Part shown: positions 3,588 to 49,558 of the stretch, in pieces
Layout of the letters: each line of letters starts with the position of its first letter
Numbering within the stretch: the stretch's first letter is position 1
Assembly: GCA_035576605.1 (NCBI GenBank)
Contig: DATLWF010000196.1
Location: 9,430-73,429, forward strand
Length of the DNA stretch: 64,000 nt
Direction: 5' to 3'
DNA from: Blastocatellia bacterium
GTDB lineage: Bacteria > Acidobacteriota > Blastocatellia > UBA7656
Position numbers and translations under genes: made by a program
Notes under the pieces: model-generated
The model's database searches: none
Seen by the model: only the letters and a program-made list of their open reading frames with translations
Told to the model about the DNA's origin: nothing

Positions 3588-3640
3588 CCGCGCCCGGCCC
3601 TCGAGGAAAACCAATACCGCGTCGTTGTTCCAGCGTGCGT

Positions 3641-7825: not shown

Positions 7826-7832
7826 GGCGTTA

Positions 7833-16653: not shown

Positions 16654-17012
16654 TAGGCGTTCACCTATCGGTCGAACGTGACCGGTACGTGTCGATTGTG
16701 AGACAGCGATAGTTGCTTGAAAAGTCCTATACCTACTGGAATAGCTACCCGACGGTCCAGGACGAAAGATCCGTTTGCTGGTGGGATGTTGCCTTCATAA
16801 TCCCGGACTCGTAGGCTATCTAAACCCATCACCCTTTCTTATATCCGTAATCAACTGAAACCTACAAAAAGCGTACGCGCCGCGTGCACCGGGCGTCGCC
16901 GCACTCGCGGTTCAGCAAGCCGGTTTTTGCGAGCGCTCGCGCGTGCGCTATCGTGTTGACGGCACACATAAACCAGAGGATGTCCGATTATCTTGCACAA
17001 AGGGGCCGGGTT

Positions 17013-19019: not shown

Positions 19020-19044
19020 CGTTTGAAGCTGACGCTGACGTCGA

Positions 19045-20244: not shown

Positions 20245-20310
20245 ACTTGATAGTCCTTCGCTCGCCGAAAATGGGAAGCCGTTGATTAACGTTTTGCTGC
20301 AATGGCCGGG

Positions 20311-21519: not shown

Positions 21520-21542
21520 TAAGATTCAACCTCGTCCATGGG

Positions 21543-22730: not shown

Positions 22731-22793
22731 GTCGCCTCCCACGTCGTCAGTTAGTCTCTGCAGGCAGTAAGCAGGACACATAGGCCGAATAAT

Positions 22794-23993
22794 TCATCGC
22801 TGTGCCTCGAATGAAACATTGGAACTCTTCTTCAGGGTTTGCGACGCAATCGAGCGCGCGGTGGTAAGCAGCCAGTCGTACAGCTCTTGAGTTCTTTCAA
22901 GCTGCGCCTCACATGAAAACTTCTCTTCAATTACCTGCCGGCCTCGCTTACCCATCGCGCGTGCTAATGAGGGATCCCGCAGCAGAGCGACGATACGGTC
23001 TGCCATCGCCGCATCATCATCCGACCGCACCAGATAACCGGTCTGCCTATCGACAATCGCTTCGCGAGCCCCTCCAACATCCGTCGCTACGACCGGGCGT
23101 GCGGCAGCCATATATTCGAGAATCGAATTTGAAAATCCTTCAGCTGTCGAAGAGAGCACGCATACATCGGATAAACCGAGCAAATCACCTATGCGATCGC
23201 AGCGTCCGATGAAAAACACTTTGCCGCCTAGTCCAAGACCCTCAACCATCGCGCGCATTGATGTCATCAACTCACCCTCTCCGGCAACAACAAATCTAGT
23301 GCGCGGCAGGGCCTGACTTACAGTGCGTGCGGCTCGCAAGAACATCGAATGGTTCTTTACCGCATGCCTGAGGTTGGCCACAATTGTTACCAAAGGGGTG
23401 TTATCCCCGCAGGGCAGCTTGAAAGAAGCAAGAGCTTCCTCGCGCCTCAGGCACGAGCTTGAACTGACCCGACTGATGTCCAGGCTGTTGTAGATTACTG
23501 TTGTCTTTTCTTTGCGCACACCTTCGCTGATCAGTTGATTGCGCACAGCGTCGGCATTGGCAATCACTTTATGCGAAAGATCGTAGGCACGCCGTTCAAC
23601 AAACCTCTGTACATCAGTGCGCCAACCAGTAGTTTCGCGCCGCGATGCTACACGCGCGGACACGCGTGCGAGCATCGCGGCCGGCATTCCGAATACGTTT
23701 GTGTAGAAGTCGTGCGTATGGACGACGTCGATTTCGCGCTCCCGCAGGAATTGAGCGAAACGGCGAAGCTGCTTGAAAGCGTTGCGATCGTAAAAGCTCG
23801 TCAACCGGAACTCTGGAATTTCTGCAAAGCCGGCCCTCGCCGCCTCGGCTCGCAAAACGCCGCTCGCATCCAGACAAGCGATATGCACACCATAGCTCCC
23901 ATTTTCTTTGAGCAGACGCGCAAGTTGGACAGCCTGACGTTCCGAGCCACCTTCATGAAAGCTTCCGATTAGTTGCAGAACGTTTCGCTTCAT
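22794..23993 (-). CDS. Glycosyltransferase family 4
   Basis: TSTAEGFSNSILEYMAAARPVVATDVGGAREAIVD. ATG 23993 (MKRNVLQLIGSF), 20 nt after the AsnB-like stop, preferred over the upstream in-frame start at 24053. Confidence 0.8.
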   Translation of the reverse strand: MKRNVLQLIGSFHEGGSERQAVQLARLLKENGSYGVHIACLDASGVLRAEAARAGFAEIPEFRLTSFYDRNAFKQLRRFAQFLREREIDVVHTHDFYTNVFGMPAAMLARVSARVASRRETTGWRTDVQRFVERRAYDLSHKVIANADAVRNQLISEGVRKEKTTVIYNSLDISRVSSSSCLRREEALASFKLPCGDNTPLVTIVANLRHAVKNHSMFLRAARTVSQALPRTRFVVAGEGELMTSMRAMVEGLGLGGKVFFIGRCDRIGDLLGLSDVCVLSSTAEGFSNSILEYMAAARPVVATDVGGAREAIVDRQTGYLVRSDDDAAMADRIVALLRDPSLARAMGKRGRQVIEEKFSCEAQLERTQELYDWLLTTARSIASQTLKKSSNVSFEAQR

Positions 23994-24012
23994 TGAACCG
24001 CTTTCACCTCTC

Positions 24013-25950
24013 CTATGCCGCCGGCTGAGATTCACCTCTTTCGCCCGGACCATCCTTTAATGTGAGAACCATTCGCGCACCGCTTGTGGTCGGGTCAATC
24101 CCCTCTCGCTCGCACCTAAGCCATTTCTCAAGCACAAATAGATACCAAAGTTGTTTCGGCGCCGATCCTCGCCGCGCCGCCTCTTCCAACTCAGAGAGTG
24201 CGGCGGTCGAATTTATCCAGCCCTCCGTCGCTAACAACGAATCGGTGAAGCTTTGCTTCACGCGATCGTGCCACCGTCCGACAATCCATCGATGGACGGG
24301 AATGCCAAATCCGCGCTTGCGGCCCTGCGCAACCTGATCGCCGATCCTTCTCCGCGCCAGCTCGCGCAATATCGCCTTCGAGAGGCCGCCACGAAGGCGC
24401 ACATCAAACGGGAGCGACGCTGCAAACTCCCAGAGTCGGTGATCGAGAAAAGGTGACCGCGCCTCCACGGAATGATGCATCGTCGCGCCGTCGACCTTTG
24501 TCAGGTACTCGCCGACAAACCGCATTCGGCGGTCATAGCGCAGGAATTCCGTCAGCAGGTTTCGGGCCGATAGCGGGGACCAGTCGATGCCGCGCTGATC
24601 TATGCTCCTCTCGCGAAGTCTGTCGCCGAGCACTCCACTTCTTTCATAAAAGGGTAGCCCATCATGAATCGTCGTCACTCCACCGAGTCCGCCCGTGGCG
24701 ACGTCCATGAAAGTCGCCGCCCGGCGCAAAGGTCCGATCCTGGGAAAGCTATCTCGAAGGCCCTGCCACAAACCGCTTGCACAATCCGGTAGAGCCCGGG
24801 CTAGTCGCTGGGCCATAAGGAAATGCCGGTGCTCCGGATAACCAAGAAAGACATCGTCACCTCCATCGCCGGTCAGAAGAACCTTGGCGGAGGCTCGGAC
24901 GGCGCGCGAAACGCTGAGCATGCCGAGCGCAGAGGCGCACGCGAATGGTTCGCCGAACGCAGAAGTAAGCTCGCTGACATCAGGTGCAGCCGTCGCGGAC
25001 ACAGGCAGTACGCGATGGCTTAAGTTGAGTGTTTTCGCCGTCGCGCGAGCGTCCTCACTCTCATCCCACGGATCGCCGGGCGTGCCCACGGTAAAGGCCG
25101 TTACATCACCGCCAAGCTTGGCCACGGCCCAACAGACAAGACTTGAATCAACACCGCCGCTAAGGAGCGCCCCGATTGGCACATCAGAACGGAGTCGAAT
25201 CTCTACCGCCTTCAGGAAGATCCTCTCCGTCTCTTCGACCGCTTCATCGAAAGTTAGAGCGCATTGCTGATCAACATCGGGCGGCGCCCAGTACTCTCGC
25301 GTTCGCAAAACGCCGTCGCACCACTCGACGATTGATGCGGCTGGTACTTTGATTGCCCCACGATAGATGGAGCGATCATCCGTCACAAATCCAAACTCGA
25401 GGTATTCTGCAACCGCCTTCTCATCAATGTCGTGGACGAACCCTCCAACACGCAATGCGCGCGCGGTCGAAGCGAAGACTAAACAGCCCTCCTGCACGGC
25501 ATAAAAGAGCGGCTTCACCCCGAGCCGGTCCCGAACAAGGAAAAGCCGACGCTTGTGGTCGTCCCACAACCCAAATGCGAACATCCCCCTCAGCTTCGAC
25601 ACCAAACCGTCGATACCCCATTCCTGATATCCTTGAATCAGCACTTCGGTGTCAGAACTGCTGGTAAAGCGGCAGCCAAGCGCAATCAACTCCTCTCGCA
25701 ACTCAAGATAGTTGTAGATCTCGCCGTTGAACGTGACCCCCACCCATCTATCCGTAGACAGCATCGGCTGCCGGCCCGTGTAGCCCAGATCGATGATTGC
25801 CAATCGCCGGTGACCTAACACCGCTTCGCTCCATACTTCGATTCCCTCGCCATCAGGCCCACGTCCTTCAAGCGAGCGCGTCATCTCAGTAACCGAGCGT
25901 GTCGCACTCTCGCGATCCTCGATTCCTACGTGTCCTGCGATTCCGCACAT
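24013..25950 (-). CDS. Asparagine synthetase-family amidotransferase 1 (glutamine-hydrolysing, AsnB-like)
   Basis: MCGIAGHVG N-terminal nucleophile at ATG 25950 (RBS GAAGG). PP-loop SGGVDSS. Confidence 0.85.
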   Translation of the reverse strand: MCGIAGHVGIEDRESATRSVTEMTRSLEGRGPDGEGIEVWSEAVLGHRRLAIIDLGYTGRQPMLSTDRWVGVTFNGEIYNYLELREELIALGCRFTSSSDTEVLIQGYQEWGIDGLVSKLRGMFAFGLWDDHKRRLFLVRDRLGVKPLFYAVQEGCLVFASTARALRVGGFVHDIDEKAVAEYLEFGFVTDDRSIYRGAIKVPAASIVEWCDGVLRTREYWAPPDVDQQCALTFDEAVEETERIFLKAVEIRLRSDVPIGALLSGGVDSSLVCWAVAKLGGDVTAFTVGTPGDPWDESEDARATAKTLNLSHRVLPVSATAAPDVSELTSAFGEPFACASALGMLSVSRAVRASAKVLLTGDGGDDVFLGYPEHRHFLMAQRLARALPDCASGLWQGLRDSFPRIGPLRRAATFMDVATGGLGGVTTIHDGLPFYERSGVLGDRLRERSIDQRGIDWSPLSARNLLTEFLRYDRRMRFVGEYLTKVDGATMHHSVEARSPFLDHRLWEFAASLPFDVRLRGGLSKAILRELARRRIGDQVAQGRKRGFGIPVHRWIVGRWHDRVKQSFTDSLLATEGWINSTAALSELEEAARRGSAPKQLWYLFVLEKWLRCEREGIDPTTSGARMVLTLKDGPGERGESQPAA

Positions 25951-25955
25951 AGCGA

Positions 25956-27386
25956 CTAACCTTCGGCCTGCTTCACCTTTGATTTCCGCGCGGCGCCCAG
26001 CCATCCGGCCGGATAGTTCCTATCGGTCGAGACTTCCAGCGACTCCAGCACCTGATTGGCCTTACCTTGCCCGAGATCTCCTGTGACTGTTACGTCGTTG
26101 GGGTTAGACAGAGTTATCGGCCAGCGAAACTGGGTGAACGACTCACGCGCGATCGGAATTCGATGAGGGTCGTAGCCGAGCAGGTGCGCTCCAACCCAAT
26201 CCACGGCGGCCGCGTTGTTGCCGCCAAAAATCAATCCCATTGGCAACGGCTTCGGGCAAAGCGGTCCGTCTCCCTGCCCGGCTATTACCGCATCTACGAG
26301 ATGAATAACCCGGCGCTGCAGCGCGTCGTCCAAACTTCCATCCGAACGTCCGTACAGGAGAACCCGATTGAGGTCCAATCCGGTTCGCCAGACGGTGTCG
26401 TTTCCCGACCAGGAGCCTTCAACTCCCAGACGATCTCCGCCGAGCGACGAAATGCGATTGAGATTCGTGGCAAATTCGCCCCACAGGCGAGCGGTAGCGA
26501 ATGACGACGCCATGTTCTGTCGGTCAAGTGTGTACTCGAGCGCGCGCTTGATCGGGTTTACGCCGGGATAACAATCACCACCTGTTTTAGAGCCTCCGAT
26601 GCGGTGATGCGGGAGGTATTCCTTGTTTCCGTTGATGCCGATCAGATTCTTGAGCGCGCAAGTGATGCCGGCTTTCTTATGCGTCTTTAGTTTCGGAAGG
26701 TTGATAATTACGTCTGCGTCTATCACCTCTCTCGCGACCAGATATTGGTGTCGGCGAGGTGAATGTGTCTTTGCCAACAGCCGAGGGTCGTAGCAGGTGA
26801 CCCGGAAGGAGTGCTCTTCATCGGTGACAGGTTCGAGCAAGCTCTCGCTTCCGAGATCGAATAGAAGGAATCGATCTTCCGCGACGAGGTTCTCCGACGC
26901 TAACCTCACGCCATTCACGAATTCGCACGTAGTCCTTCGGAAGTCGCGAACCCCTCGAAACCGCGCCTCCGTACTCATCAACTTGACAGCCCACTCGTCG
27001 AGACCGGTCACCCGTAAGAGTTCATCGAAATGACAACCCTGAACAGGGGCATCACCAACCAGGACTTCTGAGGCGGTTGATTGAAGGACGGCCGCAACTG
27101 TGGCCTGAATAAGAGAGGCGTGGGTAATCAGCGGCTCAATTCCCCACGGTCCTTCATTCTGATGCATTACCAGGTTTGGTTTGACAACCACACGGGCGCC
27201 ATTCGGGATGACCTTGCCGAAAGGGCCGTGCTGTTGATCTGACCAGCCAAGCGATTCTGCCGTCTGAGTAATCGCCCTTTCGGCGTCGGCCTGGGCGTCA
27301 ACCGATGAGTTCCGGTACCCGAGCGTCGAGGTTTTCGCGATCGCCACCCGTAAATCACGCAGAGTTTGCAGGGAAGTAGCGGTCAT
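25956..27386 (-). CDS. DUF362 domain protein
   Basis: VVKPNLV...INLPKLKTHKKAGITCALKNLIG signatures. ATG 27386 overlaps the TGA of the upstream CapK-like gene (ATGA). Confidence 0.6.
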   Translation of the reverse strand: MTATSLQTLRDLRVAIAKTSTLGYRNSSVDAQADAERAITQTAESLGWSDQQHGPFGKVIPNGARVVVKPNLVMHQNEGPWGIEPLITHASLIQATVAAVLQSTASEVLVGDAPVQGCHFDELLRVTGLDEWAVKLMSTEARFRGVRDFRRTTCEFVNGVRLASENLVAEDRFLLFDLGSESLLEPVTDEEHSFRVTCYDPRLLAKTHSPRRHQYLVAREVIDADVIINLPKLKTHKKAGITCALKNLIGINGNKEYLPHHRIGGSKTGGDCYPGVNPIKRALEYTLDRQNMASSFATARLWGEFATNLNRISSLGGDRLGVEGSWSGNDTVWRTGLDLNRVLLYGRSDGSLDDALQRRVIHLVDAVIAGQGDGPLCPKPLPMGLIFGGNNAAAVDWVGAHLLGYDPHRIPIARESFTQFRWPITLSNPNDVTVTGDLGQGKANQVLESLEVSTDRNYPAGWLGAARKSKVKQAEG

Positions 27387-28777
27387 GCTGCGCGCCCTCC
27401 GGATATATCGACCTCGCTCACGACCGGACGCCACTTATTGGCAACCGTTCGTGGAACCTCGTCAACCAGCAGCGTGCTTATACTCAGGCCCGGCAGGTTT
27501 GCGCGTACTATCGCAAGAATCTTTTCGTTCGCATCATCGCTGAAGCCGCTCCTTGGAGCGATCTTGATCTCTACCGAATAGTCCGAGCGTTGAAGGAACA
27601 TATACTCCCGCACTGGATAGTCCTTCATCATATGCGGGATCTGTAGCCCGGTTATCCATCGGCCATCAGGCAGCCAGATTCGGTCAACATCGCGGCCGAC
27701 CACCTCATCGAGGAAGAGAGCGGGATGGCCCGGTTTGCTGCCAGGCAGAAAGCGCCCTACATCGCCTACGCGATAGCGGATCATCGGCATTGCGTCGGCA
27801 TGGAGTTTGGTGATGAGAATGCCTGCTTCCGGCCCGCCGGCTTCGGGTTCGACCATGATGTTGGCCCAGTCGATCTCGTAGGAAAAGGTTCGCTCCGGTT
27901 CCATCTGAAACGCTACGTAACCAACATCACGGCCTCCATAACGCTCGTGAACCGGCCGCCCGAATGCGGCGTGAATTGCTTCGCGATGATGCGGCAGGAG
28001 TTTCTCTGCTCCAGTGATGAAACAGCGCGAAGGATATGTTGGGCGGTGGCCACACTCGAGGACGTGTTCGGCGAGATGGCCAAGCGCGCTCGCATAGGCA
28101 ATTATGCAGTCGGGCTGCCATTGCTGAAATTGATGGTGATATTGTTCGAGCAGGTCGGGTGACAGACGCAGACAATCGAAATAACGGGAGTTCGTTTCAA
28201 ATGCGTGAAACCTTTCCCGCAAACTGTCGTGGGCCCTCGGGTCAAGGTGATGCCCCCAAAGCAACCCGGTGCGCACTCCGGACGGCGCTCCAATTCGCCG
28301 CATGAAATACTCGCCGGCGCTCTCTTTCCACCCTCTCTCTTCGGGCCCGAGCCAGATGTGCGTAGGCGCGCCAGTTGAGCCGCCTGTTGAATCCATAAGC
28401 ATCTCGTTGGCCGGTACGGTTTGCGATAACATTTTGAGAGCGGATTCGCGTATGTCTTCTCGTTCGAGGATTGGAACGCGGGCGAATTCATCGAAACCGA
28501 AATCCGATCCGGGGTTGAATCCGATCCGGTCGAACAGCTCGCGATAGTACTCCGTCTCCCCGTACGCGCGCCGGACCGCAAACCTCAGTCGTTGAAGTAT
28601 CCAATCGAGCTTCCGATCAGAGCTCCAGTTGTTAGCCCGGCGGCGCAGCCGCATACCCTCGTAGTAAGCCCGGATGACTGGGCGACGAGACGGTCGAGCC
28701 AGTCTTTGCAGGCGCGATAGCGGCAGCAAGACGCCGCGTGACAGCGACCGGTGAGCGTTCGCAGCCAACCTGCTCAT
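27383..28777 (-). CDS. Phenylacetate-CoA ligase family (CapK/F390-synthetase-like adenylate-forming enzyme)
   Basis: MDSTGGSTGAPTHI AMP-binding P-loop variant; PaaK-like length. Start uncertain: ATG 28777 chosen because track start 28951 overlaps the upstream gene by about 150 nt. Confidence 0.65.
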   Translation of the reverse strand: MSRLAANAHRSLSRGVLLPLSRLQRLARPSRRPVIRAYYEGMRLRRRANNWSSDRKLDWILQRLRFAVRRAYGETEYYRELFDRIGFNPGSDFGFDEFARVPILEREDIRESALKMLSQTVPANEMLMDSTGGSTGAPTHIWLGPEERGWKESAGEYFMRRIGAPSGVRTGLLWGHHLDPRAHDSLRERFHAFETNSRYFDCLRLSPDLLEQYHHQFQQWQPDCIIAYASALGHLAEHVLECGHRPTYPSRCFITGAEKLLPHHREAIHAAFGRPVHERYGGRDVGYVAFQMEPERTFSYEIDWANIMVEPEAGGPEAGILITKLHADAMPMIRYRVGDVGRFLPGSKPGHPALFLDEVVGRDVDRIWLPDGRWITGLQIPHMMKDYPVREYMFLQRSDYSVEIKIAPRSGFSDDANEKILAIVRANLPGLSISTLLVDEVPRTVANKWRPVVSEVDISGGRAA

Positions 28778-28794
28778 TCTCCTTTCAATGGCGT

Positions 28795-31329
28795 TCAATA
28801 GTCTGCCTCCACCGGCTCCGCAGCCGTTTGCTTCCAATGTTTTCGGCGCATCTGCAGCATCTGCTCCCGAATTGAATTCCTCTCTCTCTGAGTAGGAAAG
28901 CTCAGCATGAGAAGCCCGGCAACGTACAGCAGCGAGAAAACCGCTCCACAAACACTAAGCACAACGAAAGGTTTTGTATCCGACAGGTACAGGCGAGTCA
29001 TTTCTGCTGCCGCTCCCGCAATCGCGGTAGCAAACACCACTTTGCCTACATCTTTGAGCAACAAAATATCTTTCCGGGTCAACCCGAGGATGTGTCCGAC
29101 CTTTATCGAAGTAACCACTCGCTCGATCAGGTTCACGGCTATCACTATCGATATTGTTCCAACCATCCCAAGGTGGTTTGTGCCTAACCATAGAGTAGCC
29201 ACAAGCACTACAAGCACTGCCACCCGAGTCTTGAGCGGAAAGTAGCGATGCTCTGCGTACGCTCGCATTATCGGATCGCAACCGCTTGTGAGAATGGCGA
29301 GCGGCACCAAAATCAGATTGATGGCGAAAATCGGATAGCTCGCAAGGTAGCGCGATGTGAACAACACCGTTATGAACTCACGCCCCAGTAACAGCAGAAA
29401 CAGGAAGAGAGGAAAGTAGATTGCCGACAGCTTGCGCACCATCTTTGCCGTGAGTTCAATGATCTCGCGGGTTCTGCCAAACTTTTGCAGATAGCTGATG
29501 CGCGGAATCATTACCGAGCCAACGGTATCGCTGAGAATAGTCACCAGCGGCAGTTGAAAGCACCCGATGGCGTAGATGGCGTAAGCCGTGGCGCCGAAGC
29601 GATTCGAAACGAAATAATTGTCCAGGTCCGATTGCACTCCTATTATGGCGGCTACGCCGAGCGGCAGCGAATAAGCCAGTTGTCTGCGCATGAGCGACCA
29701 TTTGAAGCTCCTCCAGAAAGCGCCAAAGCGGGAACGCAAATAGAGCATCAAGATGATGGTTTGAAGCAATCCGTGAATGATTGCGGCATAGATCAGCGCC
29801 CAGACTGAAGAAAACCACAGTGCTCCAGCCAACAACAGCCCGGTCTTGGTGAACTGTGAGGCTATGACAAACACCGTGGCCAGCCGGTATTCCTGATGAG
29901 CAACTGCGGCAACCTCCAAAAACGATGAGACTATCCAGAGTAAAATGACAACGCCGATTAGCGGCGCATACTGGACCAGATCTGTGCTATTAAAGATCGC
30001 AATCCAAATCTGGGGCCACAGACACAATGTAAGCGCAGCCGCCCCGCCCATGATCGAATAAAACAGTATGATGTTGAAAACGACCTGGCCTTGCCGCTCC
30101 CGCTCGCGGGGTAGGAAATAAAAAGCGCTCATTCCAACCCCCAGCGGCACTACGCTTAGGGCGGTGCCTACAACCAGAAACACCTGTTTGTAGAGGCCGA
30201 ACTCATTCTGGCTCAAACGGCGCACCAGCAGCAGTGGTAAAGCAAAGCTGAGGAGAAACGCTATAGTCTTTGCAAACAAGTACCAGGCGGCGCGCAATGT
30301 CAGAGAGTCGCCTTTCTCGTAGGAATCGCCTGAACTCTTGGACTGAAACGAGAATGGGGTCGCAAAGTTATAAAGCCGCAGCAAAAGGCGCGGAGAGAAA
30401 CGTAAAAGGTGAAGCGCCAATTGCAACTTCCAACTGTGATAAAAATCGTTCGCGATTCTGACTGCTTTCTCCGCGCCTTTAAAATCACCGCCAGACAACT
30501 TTCGCTTCCCCTGCTCCAACTCCAGAGTAGCTCTCAATTTCTCCGTCTGGTGCATGAGCGACAGGCGTTCGTCTTCGGTTAGGCGGGCGTTCCGTTCATT
30601 TCTCTTTAGAACCTTCAGAGAGTGCTCAAATAGTCTCACCTGGTCGGCGGTCAGACTTTTTGCGTGGATTCTCTTGCAGAGGAGAACCTTGCGCTGGTAC
30701 TCAATCCGTGCTCCAACCCTCGCTAAGCGCAGCCACAAATCGTAGTCCTCTGCGTAACGCAGTTCTTCATCAAATAATCCAACATCCTCTACCGCCAGCC
30801 GTCGGGCGACCGTTGCCGACAGGATGACCGTGCACCGTCCCCCCAGTAAGCTCTCAAATGTGACATCGCCATTTGAGGGCGTTGTTTCCATGAAAGTGCG
30901 GCCGGCAAGCGCCGAATCTCCTACCAGCAATGCATCTGTGTAGACCAAATCGACGGTCGGGTTTTTTTTAAAGAAGGCGATTTGCTCAGCCAGATAGTCT
31001 GCCTCCCAGTAGTCGTCAGCGTCTAGAAATGCAATGTACTCACCGCGCGCCGCTCTTATCGCGGTATTGCGCGCTGCGGAGCAGCCGCGATTGTCCTGCT
31101 TGATGTAAACGATGCGCTCGCGGTAGGGCTCAAGCGCTCGCTCGAGGTCGACCGTATCCGGGGAACCGTCGTTTACGACAATTATTTCGTAATCGGAGAA
31201 TGTCTGCTTGAGGACCGAACTAATAGCTGTGCCGATATATTCAGCGACATGATAAGCCGGCATTACGACGCTGACCGACGGGCCATCGACTGGATTAGAA
31301 GCTTTGCCGGGCGAGTTCTCTACTTGCAT
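28795..31329 (-). CDS. Fusion protein: N-terminal GT2 glycosyltransferase plus C-terminal multi-TM Wzx/PST-like polysaccharide biosynthesis domain
   Basis: VSVVMPAYHVAEYIGTAISSVLKQTFSDYEIIVVNDGSPD...LDADD (GT2) in residues about 20-280. Residues about 340-845 are continuously hydrophobic (at least 12 TM). ATG 31329 with RBS GAGGAA. Confidence 0.7.
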   Translation of the reverse strand: MQVENSPGKASNPVDGPSVSVVMPAYHVAEYIGTAISSVLKQTFSDYEIIVVNDGSPDTVDLERALEPYRERIVYIKQDNRGCSAARNTAIRAARGEYIAFLDADDYWEADYLAEQIAFFKKNPTVDLVYTDALLVGDSALAGRTFMETTPSNGDVTFESLLGGRCTVILSATVARRLAVEDVGLFDEELRYAEDYDLWLRLARVGARIEYQRKVLLCKRIHAKSLTADQVRLFEHSLKVLKRNERNARLTEDERLSLMHQTEKLRATLELEQGKRKLSGGDFKGAEKAVRIANDFYHSWKLQLALHLLRFSPRLLLRLYNFATPFSFQSKSSGDSYEKGDSLTLRAAWYLFAKTIAFLLSFALPLLLVRRLSQNEFGLYKQVFLVVGTALSVVPLGVGMSAFYFLPRERERQGQVVFNIILFYSIMGGAAALTLCLWPQIWIAIFNSTDLVQYAPLIGVVILLWIVSSFLEVAAVAHQEYRLATVFVIASQFTKTGLLLAGALWFSSVWALIYAAIIHGLLQTIILMLYLRSRFGAFWRSFKWSLMRRQLAYSLPLGVAAIIGVQSDLDNYFVSNRFGATAYAIYAIGCFQLPLVTILSDTVGSVMIPRISYLQKFGRTREIIELTAKMVRKLSAIYFPLFLFLLLLGREFITVLFTSRYLASYPIFAINLILVPLAILTSGCDPIMRAYAEHRYFPLKTRVAVLVVLVATLWLGTNHLGMVGTISIVIAVNLIERVVTSIKVGHILGLTRKDILLLKDVGKVVFATAIAGAAAEMTRLYLSDTKPFVVLSVCGAVFSLLYVAGLLMLSFPTQRERNSIREQMLQMRRKHWKQTAAEPVEADY

Positions 31330-31350
31330 CAACAGATTCCTCAGCGAGTC

Positions 31351-33132
31351 TCATCTTCTTTTATCGGCGCGATCTGAAGACCTCGTCGGCCTCGAATCCA
31401 GTGCCGCTTTCAGTGCTTCCATATCACAGCCGATGTTGTGGCCATCAGTAGCCGCGTTTCTGTATGGACTTGATGACTGCAGCGCGTAATTGCCTCCGGC
31501 CCGATCGGCAAACGAGGCTTCATCCAGCACGGCCGGGAAGAAGTTATCGGCCGGATAATTCGAGCTTCGCCCGCCTGCGATTACGTTCTTTCGAAAAACG
31601 CGGCCCGGAAAATATTTATCGAGCGTCGGATTACCGACACTTGCGCCGTCGCCCATCACCCCGTACTCGTTGTGAGGCACAATATTGTTTGTGAAGACGA
31701 ATCCGTTGTTTGCGGCTCCGTAAGCGGTGATCACATTACCGGTATGGAAAATGGTATTGTGATCAATCACGACGTTGTCGGTCTCGGCAATCTGCAAGAA
31801 TCTACCGTTGCCGCCCCACTTTTTGCCTCCGACATCTTCAAACAGATTGTTCCCTATCAACACCCGTTTTACTTGCTCGCTTCGATAGTTGTCGTCTCTA
31901 CCCAGAAAGTTGACCCCCGCCGCGGTATGACGGACGATGTTGTTGGTGAATGCCACATCTTCGACAACTGACCACGGCGCAGAGCCTTCCTGATTTCGGA
32001 CGGTAAAGAGGATCGCAAAGCCACTCTGTCCATCTACCCAGTTGTTTTCGAAAAGATTCCCGTCGATGAGAACGCGCCGCGCATTCTTCAACTCGAACAG
32101 GTTTTTGACGGACCAATGCTTGCCCGCATACGACGGGTTCTGACTCATCCAGGAGAGAGGCTTCGAACAATGATTAGCGCGAAGCTCGATGTCTGAGGGA
32201 ACCAGGCTTGGGATGCGAGGATCGGCGCCTCCGAACATTACGTTCTCGCCTGCCGCTTCGAGATAGTTGTTGACAATCTTGAACGGTCCCGGGCCGTTCC
32301 ATCCACAGATTGCCTGCGAATCAGCGCCTACTTCGTGCACATCCGAGATGTAAGAATCGACGATGGCTGTTGACGCGCTATTGAGCGCAACCGCCCGACG
32401 CAGATTCACATCCGCGTTACCGTGAATATAACAGCGGTCAAGAATCAAATTGTGAGGGATTGTGGCCAGTGAGTTTTGCGCGCTCCCGCCATCGCCGAAC
32501 AATATGAGACCGTGATTCTGAGCCCATCCCGGTTGGATCGTGAATTCTATGCCGACGAATCGATAATGGTGCGCGCCGGGCGCGGTCCTGATCACCGGAT
32601 CCGCGTTAGGCGTGGCAAGTTTCGGCATCATTGAAGCATCAGCCGGTTTTGCGCGCGTGCCGGCTGGCGGCAGCTTGTCGTCTCCGGCAGACGAACGAAT
32701 GACGGTCCAACTGTCGCCTTGCCTGTCAGGCAGCACGAAATTGCCTTTAACGATTGAGCCCGGCTCTATTGCGATAACGTCGCCCGACCGCGCCGAATCG
32801 AGCGCCGACTGAAATGCGCGCGCCGCCTCCTCGCCGGTTCCGTTCACTGAAATCGTGCGACCAGTCGGGCGCACGTAGTTCGTGTCAAGAATAGTCGCCG
32901 GCGGCGACGGCTTTCTCGTTCCGGCGTTTGATGCAGCCGATTGACTTTCGGGAGTCGGTCTCGCGGCGTCACTCGCTTCACGCGCGCAAGCCGTTATGCA
33001 GACCACGGCGCATGACGACAGCAAAATCGTCAGAACCGAGATCAAAACACCGGAAGGCACCGCAAAGAACCCTCCGCGCGTCTGGCCATTCCTGTCGGAA
33101 GTCTTGAAGTGGATTGTTCTGTTCACCAGCAC
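31351..33132 (-). CDS. Right-handed parallel beta-helix repeat protein (paralog 2), signal-anchored
   Basis: LDRCYIHGNADVNLRRAVALNS, ICGWNGPGPFKIVNNYLEAAGENVMFGGADP. N-terminal TM LISVLTILLSSCAVVCITA. GTG start at 33132. Confidence 0.7.
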   Translation of the reverse strand: MLVNRTIHFKTSDRNGQTRGGFFAVPSGVLISVLTILLSSCAVVCITACAREASDAARPTPESQSAASNAGTRKPSPPATILDTNYVRPTGRTISVNGTGEEAARAFQSALDSARSGDVIAIEPGSIVKGNFVLPDRQGDSWTVIRSSAGDDKLPPAGTRAKPADASMMPKLATPNADPVIRTAPGAHHYRFVGIEFTIQPGWAQNHGLILFGDGGSAQNSLATIPHNLILDRCYIHGNADVNLRRAVALNSASTAIVDSYISDVHEVGADSQAICGWNGPGPFKIVNNYLEAAGENVMFGGADPRIPSLVPSDIELRANHCSKPLSWMSQNPSYAGKHWSVKNLFELKNARRVLIDGNLFENNWVDGQSGFAILFTVRNQEGSAPWSVVEDVAFTNNIVRHTAAGVNFLGRDDNYRSEQVKRVLIGNNLFEDVGGKKWGGNGRFLQIAETDNVVIDHNTIFHTGNVITAYGAANNGFVFTNNIVPHNEYGVMGDGASVGNPTLDKYFPGRVFRKNVIAGGRSSNYPADNFFPAVLDEASFADRAGGNYALQSSSPYRNAATDGHNIGCDMEALKAALDSRPTRSSDRADKRR

Positions 33133-34436
33133 ACCCCTTGATAGCTCTTTTCGTTATTCGAGACATCCAGCAGCCTGACCAGGTCGATGATCACACGGCC
33201 GTTGCTCAACTTGTCGGACAACACACGGAATTCATCCTGATGTTTCCCGATGATCACGACCTCCGAGGAATCAATCACCTCGTTCAGATCCGATTTCATC
33301 AGCGATGAAATGTGGGGAATCTCTTGCTCGATGTACTGTTTATTCGCGCCGAACAGCTGAGCAAGTTCAACATCACGGTCATAGATCGCCAGCTTAAGAC
33401 CCTTTCCGATCAGCGTCTCGATCAGCGTCACCATCGGACTCTCGCGCAGATCATCCGTCCCCGCCTTAAAGCTCATCCCGAGGACGCCTACCTTCTTGCG
33501 CTGCGTCCGAAGCACCATATCGACCGCGCGATCCACCTGCTGCCGGTTGCTGAGCATGATTGAACTCAGCAGCGGCGTTTCCACATCAACCTCTCTGGCT
33601 CTGTAGGTGATCGCTCGGAGGTCTTTTGGTAGGCACGAGCCTCCGAACGCAAATCCCGGTTTGAGGTAATAAGGGGACAAGTTCAACTTCGTGTCTTTAC
33701 AGAAGGCCTTCATAACCTCGTGGCTATCTACGCCGAGCGCCTTGCAGATATTGCCCATCTCATTCGCAAAGGTGATCTTCAACGCATGAAAACAATTCGA
33801 TGCGTACTTGACCATCTCGGCTTCCTTAATGCCGAGCTTGATAATCGGCGCTTCGAGACCCGCGTAGAGGCGGGCTACCGGGCCGGCCGCGTCTTCGTCA
33901 TTCGCCCCGATAATTGTGAACGGCGGGTTGTTGAAGTCATTGATCGAGGAGCCTTCTCGCAGGAATTCAGGGTTGATCACAACACCGAAGTCGCGCCCGG
34001 CGCGCTTGCCGGAATAGACTTCAAGCGTGGGAATGAGGAACGTTTCAACAGTGCCCGGAAGCATAGTAGACCGCACCACGACTATGTGATAGCTGCGCTT
34101 TGCGGCGAGAGCCTCGCCAATTTGCTGGCAGGCTCTTTTGACGTGGGAGATATCCAGGCTGCCGTTGTGGTTGCTCGGCGTGCCGACACACACAAGCGAT
34201 ATGTCTGAACCTTGAACAGCGTCGCTTGCGTCGTCGGTCGCGCGAAGCCTTCTCGCGGTAACTGAAGCGCGGATCAATTGCTCGATTCCCGGCTCGACTA
34301 TTGGACTGCGGGAGTCATTTATGATCCCGACTTTTGTCTTGTTAACGTCTACGCCTATCACTTCGTGACCTGCTTCCCCGAAGCAAGCGGCGGAAACGCA
34401 GCCAACATATCCCAATCCGAAAATGCTCAATCTCAT
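33123..34436 (-). CDS. NDP-sugar 6-dehydrogenase (UDP-glucose/GDP-mannose dehydrogenase family)
   Basis: MRLSIFGLGYVGCVSAACF Rossmann N-terminus at ATG 34436. Catalytic GGSCLPKD. Confidence 0.8.
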   Translation of the reverse strand: MRLSIFGLGYVGCVSAACFGEAGHEVIGVDVNKTKVGIINDSRSPIVEPGIEQLIRASVTARRLRATDDASDAVQGSDISLVCVGTPSNHNGSLDISHVKRACQQIGEALAAKRSYHIVVVRSTMLPGTVETFLIPTLEVYSGKRAGRDFGVVINPEFLREGSSINDFNNPPFTIIGANDEDAAGPVARLYAGLEAPIIKLGIKEAEMVKYASNCFHALKITFANEMGNICKALGVDSHEVMKAFCKDTKLNLSPYYLKPGFAFGGSCLPKDLRAITYRAREVDVETPLLSSIMLSNRQQVDRAVDMVLRTQRKKVGVLGMSFKAGTDDLRESPMVTLIETLIGKGLKLAIYDRDVELAQLFGANKQYIEQEIPHISSLMKSDLNEVIDSSEVVIIGKHQDEFRVLSDKLSNGRVIIDLVRLLDVSNNEKSYQGVCW

Positions 34437-34479
34437 AATTTCGGCTCGCTCATTCAAATTTCTGTTCGCTCGACACTCA

Positions 34480-35706
34480 TCATGCGACAAGACGACGTGC
34501 TCGTTGTCCTGCTGCCCGCTCGCAGATCTCGGCAAAGCTACGTGCGGCGCGCTCCCAACCGAACTTCTCGCAGACGACCGCGCGCGCTCGCTCCCCAAGG
34601 CTTTTCGCAAGCGCCGGCTCACAAAGAAGGCGGATCACCGTTTGAGCAAACTCCTCCGGCTGGTCAGCAATCATCAGCTCTTCTCCGTCGCGGACCGGCA
34701 GGCCTTCGGCGCCGACGCTGGTAGAGACGACCGGTTTCCCCATCGCCATTGCTTCGTAGATCTTTAGCCGCGTCCCCCCGCCGATTCTTATCGGGACAAC
34801 GTACGCCGCCGCCCGGCTGACATATTCCCGGATGTCATCGACGCGACCCATAATGTTGATTCGCGGATTGGACCGACCGAGCTGCAACAGTGCCGGGCTG
34901 GGATTGCGGCCCACAACCCTGAGAGTGCATTCGGGAATCTTCCGCGAGATGGCCGGAAGAATCTTGTCCGCGAAAAACAGGATGGCATCTTCGTTGGGAA
35001 TCCAGTCCATCGAACCCGTGAACACCAGCTCGAAGGGATTCGCGGTAGCCCCGCGGGGGCTAAAGTACGCGGTGTCTACTCCGGTCGGCACATCGTAGAC
35101 CTGCCCGATGCCAAACTCCGTTCGCATTCGCTCACGATCCACCTCGGACACTGCAACCACCGCGTCGAATCCACGGCAAGTCTCACGTTCGTACGGGAGC
35201 ATCTTTCGCCACTGAGTCTTGAGGAACGCTCGCTTCAAGCCGTTCTTTTGAGTTTCGAAATGACGCCGCCAGATCATGTGCTCGACGTTGTGTTGAAACA
35301 GGACGGCTGCACAGCCAGGGGAGGGCGGTAGATTAATGCTGGCGACCAGGAAGTCGCAGACCACTACATCGTAATCTCGCTCGCGCATCTCACTCTCGAT
35401 GGCGCTTCGCATTGCTCTCGAGCCATACTTTCGAATGGCATACGGGAGGGGAGAGACGAGACTTGAAGTAAGGTCATAGTAAAAACGCGCGCCGAACTTT
35501 CGAGGCTCGCGCCAGGGGATGGTGACCAGCCGATGGCAATACTCCGCAGAAAGCTCGAACGCCGCGCGTGGATCATCCGGCCTCGCAAAAGAAAGATATG
35601 TGACCTCGTGCTCGCGCTTGAGGTGCCTGAGCATCTGGTATGTCCGTATCTTTCCACCCTTGTCCAACGGGTGTAACAATTCGCTTTTTAGCCAGAGTAT
35701 TCGCAT
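34480..35706 (-). CDS. Glycosyltransferase family 4 (PEP-CTERM locus-associated sugar transferase type)
   Basis: MRILWLKSELLHPLDKGGKIRTYQMLRHL N-terminus. C-terminal YEAMAMGKPVVSTSVGAEGL. Confidence 0.75.
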   Translation of the reverse strand: MRILWLKSELLHPLDKGGKIRTYQMLRHLKREHEVTYLSFARPDDPRAAFELSAEYCHRLVTIPWREPRKFGARFYYDLTSSLVSPLPYAIRKYGSRAMRSAIESEMRERDYDVVVCDFLVASINLPPSPGCAAVLFQHNVEHMIWRRHFETQKNGLKRAFLKTQWRKMLPYERETCRGFDAVVAVSEVDRERMRTEFGIGQVYDVPTGVDTAYFSPRGATANPFELVFTGSMDWIPNEDAILFFADKILPAISRKIPECTLRVVGRNPSPALLQLGRSNPRINIMGRVDDIREYVSRAAAYVVPIRIGGGTRLKIYEAMAMGKPVVSTSVGAEGLPVRDGEELMIADQPEEFAQTVIRLLCEPALAKSLGERARAVVCEKFGWERAARSFAEICERAAGQRARRLVA

Positions 35707-35721
35707 CTTATCTTCGGCTGC

Positions 35722-36507
35722 TCACGATGCCGCCTCCGTACAAGCATGAACGCGATTTCGTGGCACCAATCGACAACGCACGATCGAGGTGAAGAACTCT
35801 TTCGTAAGCGCATTTGCAAGCACTCTGGCGCGTTTGATTGGCGCTGTCTCGAAGGTCTCAAATGCAAACTCGCTTTCCGAGACAAGCTTCTTGAAGCGGC
35901 GAATAGTCATTCGGTTTAACCCGCCTTCGATTTCTGAAAAACGAGTAGCTCCGTCCGATTTGAAATCGGAACGCCATCGGATAAGACAGCCCTCCGTAAA
36001 CAGAAGATGAGCCCAGGGAAACACCGAAAACAAATGACCGCCGAGTGGGTGATACCACGGTGGACCAAACGCTATGATTAGCACTCCGTCATCTTTCACA
36101 AGCGTGCGCATCACGCGCAGAATGCCAACCGGATCATCAAAGTGCTCGAACGCGTCTATTGACAGTATTACGTCGGCCTTCTCGGAGGTTTCAGCAGCAA
36201 AGACGCAGCGATCTGAAACACCCGCTTGCTGAGCTCGATGTCGTGCATTGCACAAAATGTGTGCCCGCTTGTCGAGCCCAATGATTTTTCGAGCGCCGTG
36301 CTGAGCTATCTCAGAGACTTCGACGCCTGATCCACAACCAAAGTCGATCACTACTTTCCCTTCAAACTCATTCCAGATCTGCGGTCCGAACAGGACCTCA
36401 ATCTTGCTGCGGCCCTTGTACGCGCTCCCGTCGCAATAGCCAGTCTCACCCTGTGCGCTCAAAGATTTGAGCAGCTTGTATCCGATTGTTCCGCCTATTA
36501 ATCCCAT
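35722..36507 (-). CDS. Class I SAM-dependent methyltransferase
   Basis: VIDFGCGSGVEVSEIA motif I. ATG 36507 sits 2 nt after the AsnB-like-2 TAG. The track's longer GTG start at 36549 would overlap that gene. Confidence 0.65.
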   Translation of the reverse strand: MGLIGGTIGYKLLKSLSAQGETGYCDGSAYKGRSKIEVLFGPQIWNEFEGKVVIDFGCGSGVEVSEIAQHGARKIIGLDKRAHILCNARHRAQQAGVSDRCVFAAETSEKADVILSIDAFEHFDDPVGILRVMRTLVKDDGVLIIAFGPPWYHPLGGHLFSVFPWAHLLFTEGCLIRWRSDFKSDGATRFSEIEGGLNRMTIRRFKKLVSESEFAFETFETAPIKRARVLANALTKEFFTSIVRCRLVPRNRVHACTEAAS

Positions 36508-36509
36508 CC

Positions 36510-38468
36510 CTATACCGCAACTCCGCTTGTGCTGATCGCATATGAGCACGTTTCAGCGCCAAAACTATGCTCTTCGCGATCGAAAAAGCGCCGCTGCCAG
36601 ATTTCAAAGTTGATCAGCGCCCAGACACGCTCCGAATGGTCTTCGCCAGCCCTGTGCCGGCCCACCAGCTCCCTGACAAACTCCTCATCGAAAATCCTTC
36701 GCCTTCTCGCTCGTTCTCCTAAGACGTACTCGTCTACGATGTAACTGAATTCACCTCGCAGCCATCGGCCTATGGGAACTGGAAATCCCATCTTTTTCCG
36801 TGTGACTATTTCCTTAGGTAGAACTCCATTGGTAATGCGGCGCAGGATGTACTTCGTCGTAATCCCCCGAAGCTTCATTGCGACCGGAAGACGCGCCGCA
36901 AACTCGACTAGCTTGTGATCCAGGAAGGGGACGCGGCTCTCAATAGAAGCCGCCATGCTCATTTGGTCCTGCTTCATCAATAGCTCGTGCAGATAGGTCT
37001 TCAAATCAACTGCGAGCAACTGATCAAGCAAGGATTTTGAGTCGCACTCGCCCATGCGATCGAGCCCAACGCGATAGGGATCGCTCGGGCCCATTTTCTC
37101 TCTTGCTTGTGGTGTAAATAATCGCTGCTGCATCGACCGCGAAAAAACGGAGAAATTATCAAAATAGATATCTTCAATGTCGGGATTCAGGCATAGAAAT
37201 GTTCGGCTGAGCTTTCCTCTGACATGCGATGTGGCGCTCATGTTTTCGATTGCATTTTTGACATGATCGCGAAGGCTCTCAGGCGCCGCTCGGTTGTAAG
37301 CCCGGCCGAGCGCGACGTTAAAGATGGTCCGCCGGTACTTCTCGTACCCGCCAAGCAACTCGTCGCTCCCCTCGCCGGTCAGCACCACCTTTACGTGTTC
37401 CGCGGCAAGCTTGGAAACGAAATAGAGCGGCACGCTTGAAGGATGAGCAATCGGCTCATCCTCTTGATAGACGAGGCCCGGGAGCGCTTCGAAGAACTGA
37501 GCCGGACTCACGATGATTTCATAATGTTGGGTTGCAAACGCACGGGAGACTGCGCGCGCATAAACCAGCTCGTTTGCTTCTCGCTCAGCAAAAGCTACAG
37601 AAAAAGTTTTTATCGGCTCCAGCACCATCCTGCTCATCGCCGCCGCGATGGCGCTCGAATCGATGCCGCCCGACAGGAACATTCCAAGCGGCACGTCAGC
37701 CATCAGTCTAAGATTTACTGACTCGTAAAACAGTTCTCTGAATCGCTCAATGTATTCAGATTCACTTAAAGGCGCGGCATCCTTGGCGAAGCTCACCTCC
37801 CAGTACGGGTTAATTTCGACCTGTCCATCTTGCCAGGTCAAAGTGTGGCCCGGCGGCAATCGCTTCACGTGCCGAAACAATGTGTCTTCACCGGAGGTCG
37901 AACGATTCGCCGCGTAATCTGCCAGTGCGTCGTATTGGAGTTCAGGCTTAACTGCGCCGGATTCGATGATCGACTTAATTTCAGACGCGAAGTAGATCGC
38001 GCCGTCCGCGGTGATCGTGTAATACAGCGGCTTGATTCCCAGGCGGTCACGTGCCAGGAGAAGCCGGCTGCGAGCGGAATCCCAAATAGCAAATGCAAAC
38101 ATTCCGCGCAGGTGTTCGACTGCGCGAGCGCCGTGCTCTTCGTAGAGATGAATGATCGTCTCCGTGTCGCACGTGGTTCGATACGTGTGCCCGCGCTGCT
38201 TCAAACCGGGCCGAAGATCTCGATGGTTATAGACTTCACCGTTGTAACTGATCCAAATAGTCTGATCTTCATTGGGCATTGGTTGATGCCCGGCGGCTAT
38301 ATCGACGATCGAAAGGCGACGATGGCCAAGTCCCGCCTGAGAATCCATGAATAGCCCGGCGTCGTCCGGCCCGCGATGTGCCAGAGCGTCCCGCATACGA
38401 ATGAGCAACGATTCACCGATGCGGCGGTCTGAATTCTTTGGTACGGCGACGCCGCAGATTCCGCACAT
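36510..38468 (-). CDS. Asparagine synthetase-family amidotransferase 2 (AsnB-like)
   Basis: MCGICGVAV N-terminus, SGGIDSS PP-loop. ATG 38468 overlaps the TGA of the upstream gene (ATGA). Confidence 0.85.
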   Translation of the reverse strand: MCGICGVAVPKNSDRRIGESLLIRMRDALAHRGPDDAGLFMDSQAGLGHRRLSIVDIAAGHQPMPNEDQTIWISYNGEVYNHRDLRPGLKQRGHTYRTTCDTETIIHLYEEHGARAVEHLRGMFAFAIWDSARSRLLLARDRLGIKPLYYTITADGAIYFASEIKSIIESGAVKPELQYDALADYAANRSTSGEDTLFRHVKRLPPGHTLTWQDGQVEINPYWEVSFAKDAAPLSESEYIERFRELFYESVNLRLMADVPLGMFLSGGIDSSAIAAAMSRMVLEPIKTFSVAFAEREANELVYARAVSRAFATQHYEIIVSPAQFFEALPGLVYQEDEPIAHPSSVPLYFVSKLAAEHVKVVLTGEGSDELLGGYEKYRRTIFNVALGRAYNRAAPESLRDHVKNAIENMSATSHVRGKLSRTFLCLNPDIEDIYFDNFSVFSRSMQQRLFTPQAREKMGPSDPYRVGLDRMGECDSKSLLDQLLAVDLKTYLHELLMKQDQMSMAASIESRVPFLDHKLVEFAARLPVAMKLRGITTKYILRRITNGVLPKEIVTRKKMGFPVPIGRWLRGEFSYIVDEYVLGERARRRRIFDEEFVRELVGRHRAGEDHSERVWALINFEIWQRRFFDREEHSFGAETCSYAISTSGVAV

Positions 38469-41038: not shown

Positions 41039-41053
41039 CGCTCCCGCGAAACG

Positions 41054-43794: not shown

Positions 43795-43804
43795 GACTGC
43801 ATTC

Positions 43805-47054: not shown

Positions 47055-47160
47055 GATTCCTCCGGTTCAAACGGTTCAGACTGAACGATGAAAACGATGC
47101 CGTCTATGCGTAACGGAACGATCGAGCTTTCGTCCTTCAGCCGTGATTCTTTCACCTGCG

Positions 47161-48543: not shown

Positions 48544-48630
48544 CGTGCAACCTTTTCGCTGACGGCGTTTTCTATCGGTGAACTGATCAACACATTTGCC
48601 CTCGACTTGCGCGACCGTTGGAACGAAACC

Positions 48631-49497: not shown

Positions 49498-49558
49498 ATG
49501 TTCCTCTATCTTTTTCGTCAGTACATCGCTTTTAGAGACTCAATCCGCATGAAACTCC

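Follow-up and report, generated by a model that had tools for sequence, protein, structure and literature searches.

Can one polypeptide of a soil acidobacterium both add a sugar to a lipid-linked repeat unit and carry that unit across the inner membrane? The question is raised by an open reading frame (ORF) in a stretch of 64,000 nucleotides from a Blastocatellia bacterium (assembly GCA_035576605.1, contig DATLWF010000196.1, positions 9,430 to 73,429; hereafter the window), in which a complete glycosyltransferase family 2 (GT2) domain continues in frame into a membrane domain of Wzx/PST type. An earlier note on this DNA had proposed either a transferase-flippase fusion, coupling a specific sugar addition to translocation, or a synthase-type enzyme that polymerises and translocates the chain, and had named a sequencing frameshift as the way in which two separate genes could have been merged. 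The fusion reading is supported by Pfam matches, by the MOP-superfamily fold of the membrane half and by the gene cluster context. We consider it probable, at roughly 70%, that the protein is truly bifunctional and resides in the inner membrane, being a repeat-unit glycosyltransferase joined to the flippase of a Wzx/Wzy-dependent exopolysaccharide (EPS) pathway, with hand-over between the two as its putative element. The halves themselves are ordinary members of the GT2 and PST/MOP families and it is the join that is unusual.

The ORF that unites the GT2 and the membrane domain was confirmed at 845 codons when it is read from a TTG and at 844 aa when it is read from the ATG that follows. The ATG is the likely true start because a GAGGA Shine-Dalgarno sequence lies 8 nt upstream and the ENA and JGI records (844 aa) begin there; it is also the start with which the coordinates first reported for the gene, 28795-31329, agree. 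The next gene upstream ends at 31351, its stop codon lying 18 nt before the ATG. Residue numbers of the fused protein are counted here from the TTG. Across the junction of the two halves the frame is uninterrupted, with neither a stop codon nor a change of frame. The exact 844-aa protein is present in three assemblies (ENA ERZ27256713, ENA ERZ27256712 and JGI 3300024279). The contig k141_244214 of ERZ27256713 (80,401 bp, short-read metagenome) is the one that holds the window, and the two other copies each differ from the window by 3 substitutions, all of them synonymous. A 90%-identical homologue (P0001) has the same ORF length and differs by 140 synonymous versus 85 non-synonymous codon changes that occur in all regions, giving a rough dN/dS of ~0.2, which indicates purifying selection on the fused ORF. 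In a word-indexed search, about 50 clusters (90% identity) were found that contain both domain types and are 39-90% identical to the query; they stem from JGI, ENA, NCBI and Logan, and several are located on contigs of 2.9, 4.4 and 7.9 Mb. Hence the fusion is conserved among homologues down to 39% identity, and a frameshift or an error of assembly can in effect be ruled out.

The N-terminal module is, as judged from its sequence and model, an inverting, non-processive GT2 enzyme of GT-A fold with a predicted location in the cytoplasm. Glycos_transf_2 (PF00535) matched at aa 21-127 with 111.9 bits (Pfam cut-off 23.3) and Glyco_tranf_2_3 at aa 18-228. A full-length AlphaFold2 (AF2) model, built on a 20-sequence alignment (mean pLDDT 81), has a confident alpha/beta GT-A domain at aa 20-222, followed by four helices at aa 231-324. 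When compared with the PDB by Foldseek, the GT2 half superposed on soluble GT-A enzymes, among them the Leptospira protein 6P61 (TMt 0.90), K4CP, SpsA, TarP/TarS, WrtF and a PglI-like enzyme; a sequence-profile search of the PDB returned the same set, with the chondroitin polymerase K4CP as the strongest match (E 1e-43). The NDGSPD motif, D104-A-D106-D107 and E195-D196/D198 are invariant or nearly so across 20 homologues, so that the PF00535 match and the GT-A fold are accompanied by the DxD motif and the downstream acidic region expected for the non-processive inverting enzymes. No [QR]xxRW or Q(Q/R)xRW motif was found anywhere in the fused protein. The best NCBIfam matches are the non-processive repeat-unit transferases TuaG, EpsD, EpsE, WcaA and PglI. 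As the scores (at most 106 bits) fall far below the equivalog cut-offs of 370-500 bits, the GT2 is not an orthologue of TuaG, EpsE, WcaA, PglI or any other named enzyme. The last helix of the tail (aa 301-324, WKLQLALHLLRFSPRLLLRLYNFA) is cationic and amphipathic, with four K/R, no D/E and a hydrophobic moment of 0.42, and probably serves as an in-plane membrane anchor. The helical tail belongs to the GT2 gene in those relatives in which the two halves are split.

The linker that follows the tail is modelled with pLDDT below 50 (aa 323-342). Its length varies from ~9 to 60 aa among fused relatives and its sequence is not conserved, while the flanking stretches PRLLLRxY and SLTxRAAW are. The fused relatives have no conserved Met at the junction, which speaks against a separate flippase being made from a conserved internal start.

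The membrane half had been described as Wzx/PST-like with at least 12 transmembrane (TM) helices. Hydropathy and AF2 both gave 14 (aa 344-836), and membership in the MOP superfamily was borne out by Pfam matches above cut-off and by the fold. Polysacc_synt_3 (PF13440) matched at aa 368-666 with 70.4 bits (cut-off 23) and Polysacc_synt (PF01943) at aa 349-615 with 50.6 bits (cut-off 28.2). Because the full-length model, searched with Foldseek against the PDB, yielded only GT2 proteins in the top 50, the membrane domain was modelled alone (aa 335-845; pLDDT 80.7, pTM 0.79). All top 50 PDB matches of this model were MOP-superfamily proteins: MurJ ranked first (7WAX, 6NC6, 5T77; TM-score 0.68-0.77 over ~500 columns), and WzxE came next (9G9P, TMt 0.71), ahead of the MATE transporters. 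The 14 helices are predicted to run with both termini inside, as 27 K/R fall on cytoplasmic loops and 1 on periplasmic loops, and this count places the GT2 in the cytoplasm, where nucleotide sugars are. Relatives of 1,150-1,213 aa that carry an S-adenosylmethionine (SAM)-dependent methyltransferase after TM14 are consistent with a cytoplasmic C-terminus. Pfam match, MOP fold and predicted cytoplasmic termini are thus combined with a neighbourhood of Wzy, polysaccharide co-polymerase (PCP), outer membrane polysaccharide exporter (OPX) and priming transferase, as is typical of Wzx/PST proteins.

Judged by its gene content, this neighbourhood is a Wzx/Wzy EPS cluster, probably of XrtA/PEP-CTERM type, in an acidobacterium of the Blastocatellia. 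A single long polysaccharide cluster on the minus strand makes up the window. A priming polyprenyl-phosphate glycosylphosphotransferase (PGT), Wzy, PCP, a bacterial tyrosine (BY) kinase and Wza are all encoded in it, and the arrangement is syntenic in relatives. The fusion is the only PST gene, and the only flippase, in the conserved core of the cluster, both in the window and in relatives. Besides the priming PGT, which exceeds the cut-off of its XrtA-associated family (Table 1), the PCP, kinase, amidotransferase, ATPase and Wzy-like protein have XrtA-associated families as their best matches, all below cut-off (TIGR03007, TIGR03018, TIGR03108, TIGR03015 and TIGR03097). No exosortase gene was found within the window.

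Syntenic relatives reveal how the fusion arose. Two Blastocatellia metagenome-assembled genomes (MAGs; loci L003 and L004) share with the window a gene order that begins with a heparinase II/III-like protein, AsnB, a methyltransferase, a family 4 glycosyltransferase (GT4), a nucleotide-sugar dehydrogenase and a 561-aa protein, continues with GT2, PST, a CapK-like ligase, DUF362, GT4 and further genes, and ends with a Ser/Thr kinase and an AAA_22 ATPase. In L003 a GT2 gene (319 aa) stops 6 nt ahead of a separate flippase gene (525 aa), and its product shows 57% identity to the fused protein over aa 20-323, a span that takes in the helical tail. A stop codon and a short intergenic gap stand in the place of the linker in this pair. 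The TGA of the GT2 and the ATG of the flippase share one frame, two codons apart (…HARV*FQMIKM…), so that a single substitution would fuse them. As the halves are neighbouring genes in syntenic relatives, the sequences indicate that a conserved pair of GT2 and wzx genes was joined end to end.

For the distribution, one genome per GTDB species was scanned, and the resulting 80 loci were classified by ORF continuity. All are from MAGs of Blastocatellia, Pyrinomonadaceae, Solibacteraceae and Bryobacteraceae and one of Binatia, the best being 64% identical. The two halves are fused in 11 loci. A separate orthologous GT2 (41-58% identical, tail included) lies directly upstream of the flippase in 24 and is set apart from it by one extra glycosyltransferase gene in 8, while 37 flippase orthologues (48-58% identical) have no GT2 match within 6 kb and 2 (L024 and L066) match another GT2 only weakly (30-32%); these classes add up to 82 against the 80 loci found, and each count carries that mismatch. 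The raw tally had 34 split loci and 39 with the flippase only. L024 and L066 were then taken out of the split class because their weak matches are not orthologues, which leaves 32 loci with an orthologous separate GT2. In a neighbour-joining tree of the flippase domain, split forms stand between the fused ones, which are spread over at least four clades. The fusion therefore appears to be recurrent, the number of events being tentative as the tree has a short backbone and no support values. When 1.84 billion representatives were searched exhaustively with a profile, only 5 clusters (50% identity) had the full-length architecture, as against more than 100 clusters of stand-alone flippases; the fusion is thus lineage-restricted.

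The same flippase has gained further partners. Twenty clusters of the 1,150-1,213-aa class (e.g. P0003 and P0006) have the order GT2-PST-methyltransferase, and loci with this tri-domain gene include L005, L011, L013 and L014. In L075 and L080 the methyltransferase module has a gene to itself, and the window lacks it; the window's own methyltransferase (35722..36549) was considered as its split counterpart and rejected (E 0.055). One protein of 1,274 aa (P0061) combines in one ORF an N-terminally added membrane GT2, 47% identical to and the orthologue of the product of 41054..42256 in the window, with the fusion-type GT2 and the flippase. In another of 917 aa (P0176) a Wzy_C polymerase-like domain is appended to the same flippase family. 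P0061 and P0176 are single ORFs, in which an assembly artefact is possible. In L001 a GT2 of 404 aa is encoded upstream of a stand-alone flippase; it was examined as a fusion partner as well and was dismissed, as it is of the orthologue type of 41054..42256. The joined pathway enzymes are always found on the cytoplasmic termini of the flippase, and the repeated joining of such enzymes (methyltransferase, second GT2, Wzy) points to an advantage in physical proximity.

Given these findings, we propose that the GT2 would add one sugar to an undecaprenyl-diphosphate (Und-PP)-linked repeat unit at the inner leaflet, and that the flippase domain would translocate Und-PP-linked repeat units for polymerisation by Wzy. 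The position next to the flippase suggests that this sugar is a late or the last one. With a flexible tether of ~20 aa and a 1:1 stoichiometry, the finished lipid-linked unit could be handed directly to the flippase cavity, and tethering would couple completion of the repeat unit to its translocation. The adjacent dehydrogenase, together with the similarities to TuaG and K4CP, provides a hint, and only a hint, of a uronic-acid-containing unit; on account of the dehydrogenase, UDP-GlcA is a candidate donor.

Several observations weigh against this proposal. Donor, acceptor and step of the GT2 are putative. AF2 predicted no specific interface between GT2 and flippase, and at a full-length pTM of 0.56 there is no confident inter-domain geometry; the model does not predict how the halves are placed relative to each other. 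The flippase half alone matched no curated NCBIfam family. About half of the species with the flippase are without an orthologous GT2 nearby, and the 37 loci with no GT2 in the vicinity, together with the two weak cases, mean that the partnership is not obligate for the flippase family. The frequent split forms and the variable linker fit a nearly neutral fusion. Finally, the window contains a second, unrelated Wzx.

A stronger form of the proposal, which we put forward tentatively and do not favour, regards the fusion as the fossil of an obligate physical complex of these Acidobacteriota, in which the last-acting cytoplasmic enzymes (the GT2 and, in relatives, also a methyltransferase or a second GT2) dock on Wzx and only completed units are released into its cavity. 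If true, the fusion would act as a checkpoint for completion that is wired covalently; together with the joined Wzx and Wzy of one relative, it would outline a Wzx/Wzy pathway that works as an assembly line. In other bacteria the separate GT2 and Wzx proteins would then be expected to form the same complex non-covalently.

The most serious rival is a neutral fusion: the protein would be bifunctional, but the join would have no mechanistic meaning, translationally coupled neighbours having lost a stop codon, and the GT2 could act at any step without hand-over. One stop-codon change suffices in the split relative, split forms outnumber fused ones, the interleaving of both in the tree speaks for easy gain and loss, the linker is variable and predicted to be disordered, and many flippase orthologues have no GT2 nearby. 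However, the join has been kept under purifying selection across 39-90% identity and in several clades, the flippase has acquired further pathway enzymes on several occasions (methyltransferase, second GT2 and Wzy), and the adjacency of GT2 and wzx is itself conserved in at least 35 of the 80 species. We judge a meaningless join to be unlikely.

It is improbable that the GT2 instead makes a polyprenyl-monophosphate sugar in the manner of GtrB, ArnC and dolichyl-phosphate mannose synthase (DPMS), which the MOP domain would flip for decoration in the periplasm. ArnC, PpgS and dolichyl-phosphate hexose transferases were matched weakly (E 1e-2 to 7e-4), GtrB and DPMS structures were matched over the N-terminal ~120 aa (PDB E 6e-8 to 1e-3) and the amphipathic tail helices could serve as juxtamembrane helices. 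These similarities are outweighed by matches to TuaG, EpsD, EpsE and WcaA that are at least 25 orders of magnitude stronger and by the better fit of soluble GT-A structures. Moreover, the protein lacks the features of the GtrB/ArnC/DPMS group, as the GT2 has no TM hairpin of its own before the MOP domain, and the conserved core of the cluster would be left without a repeat-unit flippase. The known flippases for undecaprenyl-monophosphate sugars belong to the GtrA or SMR-like families and not to MOP.

The synthase-type machine that the earlier note had considered, in which the GT2 polymerises processively and the MOP domain exports the chain, is disfavoured to the point of being very improbable. 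A glycosyltransferase and a polytopic membrane domain do share one polypeptide, as in GT2 synthases, and a polymerase, K4CP, is the strongest PDB sequence match of the GT2 (E 1e-43); in the PelF/PelG system, too, a PST-family protein is the presumed exporter. Yet the Q(Q/R)xRW motif is absent, matches to BcsA, PgaC and NodC are weak, the best matches of the GT2 are non-processive, and the membrane half has a MOP fold and not a synthase channel around the glycosyltransferase, so that the hallmarks of a processive synthase are missing. Priming PGT, Wzy, PCP and Wza define a Wzx/Wzy route, and in many relatives each half is a protein of its own. That a sequencing or assembly error merged two genes is negligible, the short-read metagenomic origin of the window's contig being set against an identical protein in three assemblies of different samples and ~50 homologous clusters of the same architecture, some of them on megabase contigs.

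The coordinates of the fusion, its parts and the surrounding cluster are collected in Table 1.

Table 1. The fused gene, its domains and the genes of the surrounding polysaccharide cluster (positions in the window).
Feature	Position	Strand	Remarks
Fused GT2-flippase gene	28795..31329	minus	844 aa from ATG, plus stop
Alternative TTG start of the fused ORF	31332	minus	codon directly before ATG at 31329; ORF 28795..31332, 845 codons
GAGGA ribosome-binding site	31338..31342	minus	8 nt 5' of ATG at 31329
GT2 / GT-A catalytic domain (predicted)	30649..31281	minus	aa 18-228; NDGSPD, DADD (104-107), ED195-196/D198; no QxxRW
Four-helix tail of GT2 module	30361..30642	minus	aa 231-324
Inter-domain linker	30304..30360	minus	aa 325-343
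14-TM MOP-superfamily / PST (Wzx-like) flippase domain	28825..30303	minus	aa 344-836; predicted N-in/C-in
PCP	49559-51133	minus	chain-length/export gene
BY-kinase ATPase	48631-49497	minus	export/chain-length gene
Priming polyprenyl-phosphate glycosylphosphotransferase	47161..48543	minus	TIGR03013 (XrtA/PEP-CTERM system), 500.5 vs cut-off 393
Wza/Poly_export	46263-47054	minus	export gene; export/chain-length span 46263..51133 encloses priming PGT
Wzy_C-type polymerase/ligase-like membrane protein	42277..43848	minus	best NCBIfam PEP_O_lig_1, below cut-off
Membrane GT2	41054-42256	minus	upstream syntenic gene; upstream block 31351..42256
Heparinase II/III-like protein (polysaccharide lyase fold)	38468..41038	minus	within biosynthetic cluster; conserved in L001, L003 and window
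AsnB-type amidotransferases (two)	36510..38468 and 24013..26004	minus	
Methyltransferase	35722-36549	minus	upstream syntenic gene
Nucleotide-sugar dehydrogenase	33123-34622	minus	passes TIGR03026
Beta-helix protein	31351-33132	minus	directly upstream of fusion
CapK/PaaK-like adenylate-forming ligase	27383-28768	minus	directly downstream of fusion; downstream syntenic block 14110..28768
XrtA-type AAA_22 ATPase	14110-14979	minus	end of conserved cluster

In the window order a formyltransferase-like protein and a deacetylase stand between Wza and the Wzy_C-type protein, and a GT4 gene lies between the methyltransferase and the nucleotide-sugar dehydrogenase upstream of the fusion. The closest named matches of this dehydrogenase are UDP-glucose 6-dehydrogenases, below their cut-offs; the start of its listed ORF is over-extended, the domain beginning at aa 63. 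Downstream, the order is ligase, DUF362, AsnB, GT4, acyltransferase-3, GT4, a protein of unknown type, beta-helix protein, Ser/Thr kinase and ATPase. The pair of ligase and DUF362 (25956..28768, minus) directly follows the flippase in the window and in L003, L005 and L092. The ligase ORF, listed as 27383..28951, is likewise over-extended and likely starts at 28768, as in the public call, without overlap with the 3' end of the fusion. The Ser/Thr protein kinase adjoins the XrtA/PEP-CTERM-type AAA ATPase (14110..16653, minus), an arrangement that is syntenic in L003. A 1,094-aa protein with PKD/TIG repeats (51831..55115, minus) flanks the cluster, as does a PKD protein in L005, and a TPR-CHAT protein (61758..63911, minus) is encoded near the end of the window.

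The separate Wzx-like gene that had been noted at 9807..11384 is indeed present. It is overlapped by 4 nt by a second GT2 gene (11381..12487, both minus), so that the two form a split GT2-wzx pair. Its neighbours (2880..8996) encode an NTP-transferase, a TagF-like glycerophosphotransferase, a single non-ribosomal peptide synthetase module (condensation, adenylation, thiolation and thioesterase domains, C-A-T-TE; 3641..7825) and a phosphopantetheinyl transferase (PPTase). This group probably makes a polymer different from that of the fusion cluster, and this second polymer may be a teichoic-acid-like or aminoacylated glycopolymer. We considered the pair as a paralogue of the fusion and rejected this, the similarity being remote (22-30% identity over short stretches); the two flippases share ~22% identity over 160 aa.

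A fusion of this kind is not surprising in principle, yet it is a clean Rosetta-stone link between a GT2 and a flippase. It bears on two questions about Wzx proteins, namely their fidelity for complete repeat units and their complexes with cytoplasmic glycosyltransferases, for which evidence has so far been indirect. One particular transferase is linked here to the flippase, and the split orthologues are built-in controls. As a single-chain target of 1:1 stoichiometry the protein lends itself to cryo-EM and to genetics of fused versus split forms, and it offers a natural handle on the coupling of sugar-unit assembly to export. It is also the gene by which the flippase step can be recognised in the large EPS clusters of PEP-CTERM type in soil Blastocatellia, which are so far known from sequence. 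Public pipelines already label such fused proteins mechanically. Our search of full-text literature found no published natural fusion of a glycosyltransferase with Wzx, which is weak evidence as most papers in subscription journals lie outside its coverage.

Among known systems, MurJ (5T77, 6NC6, 7WAX) has the same 14-TM MOP fold and is the best structural match of the flippase domain. The two differ in that identity is only 13-15%, no MurJ Pfam match reaches threshold and the fusion resides in an EPS cluster rather than in cell-wall synthesis. A precedent for a MOP flippase with a soluble domain is provided by mycobacterial MurJ/MviN, which has a fused cytoplasmic pseudokinase domain; in the present fusion, by contrast, the soluble partner itself belongs to the enzymes that assemble the flippase's substrate. 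With TuaG, EpsD/EpsE, WcaA and PglI (structures 6P61, SpsA 1QG8 and 9JMA) the GT2 shares the GT-A fold, the DxD and ED motifs and its best HMM matches, but unlike them it has a helical tail of ~95 aa and a fused flippase. BcsA, hyaluronan synthase, PgaC and NodC also combine a cytoplasmic GT2 and a product-moving membrane domain in one chain. These BcsA-type synthases differ from the fusion, which lacks QxxRW, has, on a flexible linker, an independent domain of MOP fold that is a separate gene in relatives, and is accompanied by Wzy and a priming PGT.

Among the Wzx repeat-unit flippases, E. coli WzxE (PDB 9G97/9G9P) and the fusion agree in Pfam families, MOP fold, predicted cytoplasmic termini and type of cluster, whereas the fusion has 14 helices instead of the 12 of WzxE (PMC11706664) and a covalent N-terminal GT2. 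This first Wzx structure was reported with a stated fidelity for the cognate lipid-linked oligosaccharide (PMC11706664). TacF, the MOP flippase for pneumococcal teichoic acid, acts as a gatekeeper by recognition of the head group in its cavity (PMC13385700). The fusion would resemble it in concept, in that only the fully decorated lipid-linked precursor would be exported, here by virtue of a tethered enzyme. For PssJ and PssL of Rhizobium a contact between the terminal glycosyltransferase and the flippase has been proposed on ambiguous two-hybrid evidence (PMC7589315). The idea that the transferase for the last sugar contacts Wzx is the same, but the Rhizobium proteins are separate, whereas in the Blastocatellia cluster the two are one polypeptide.

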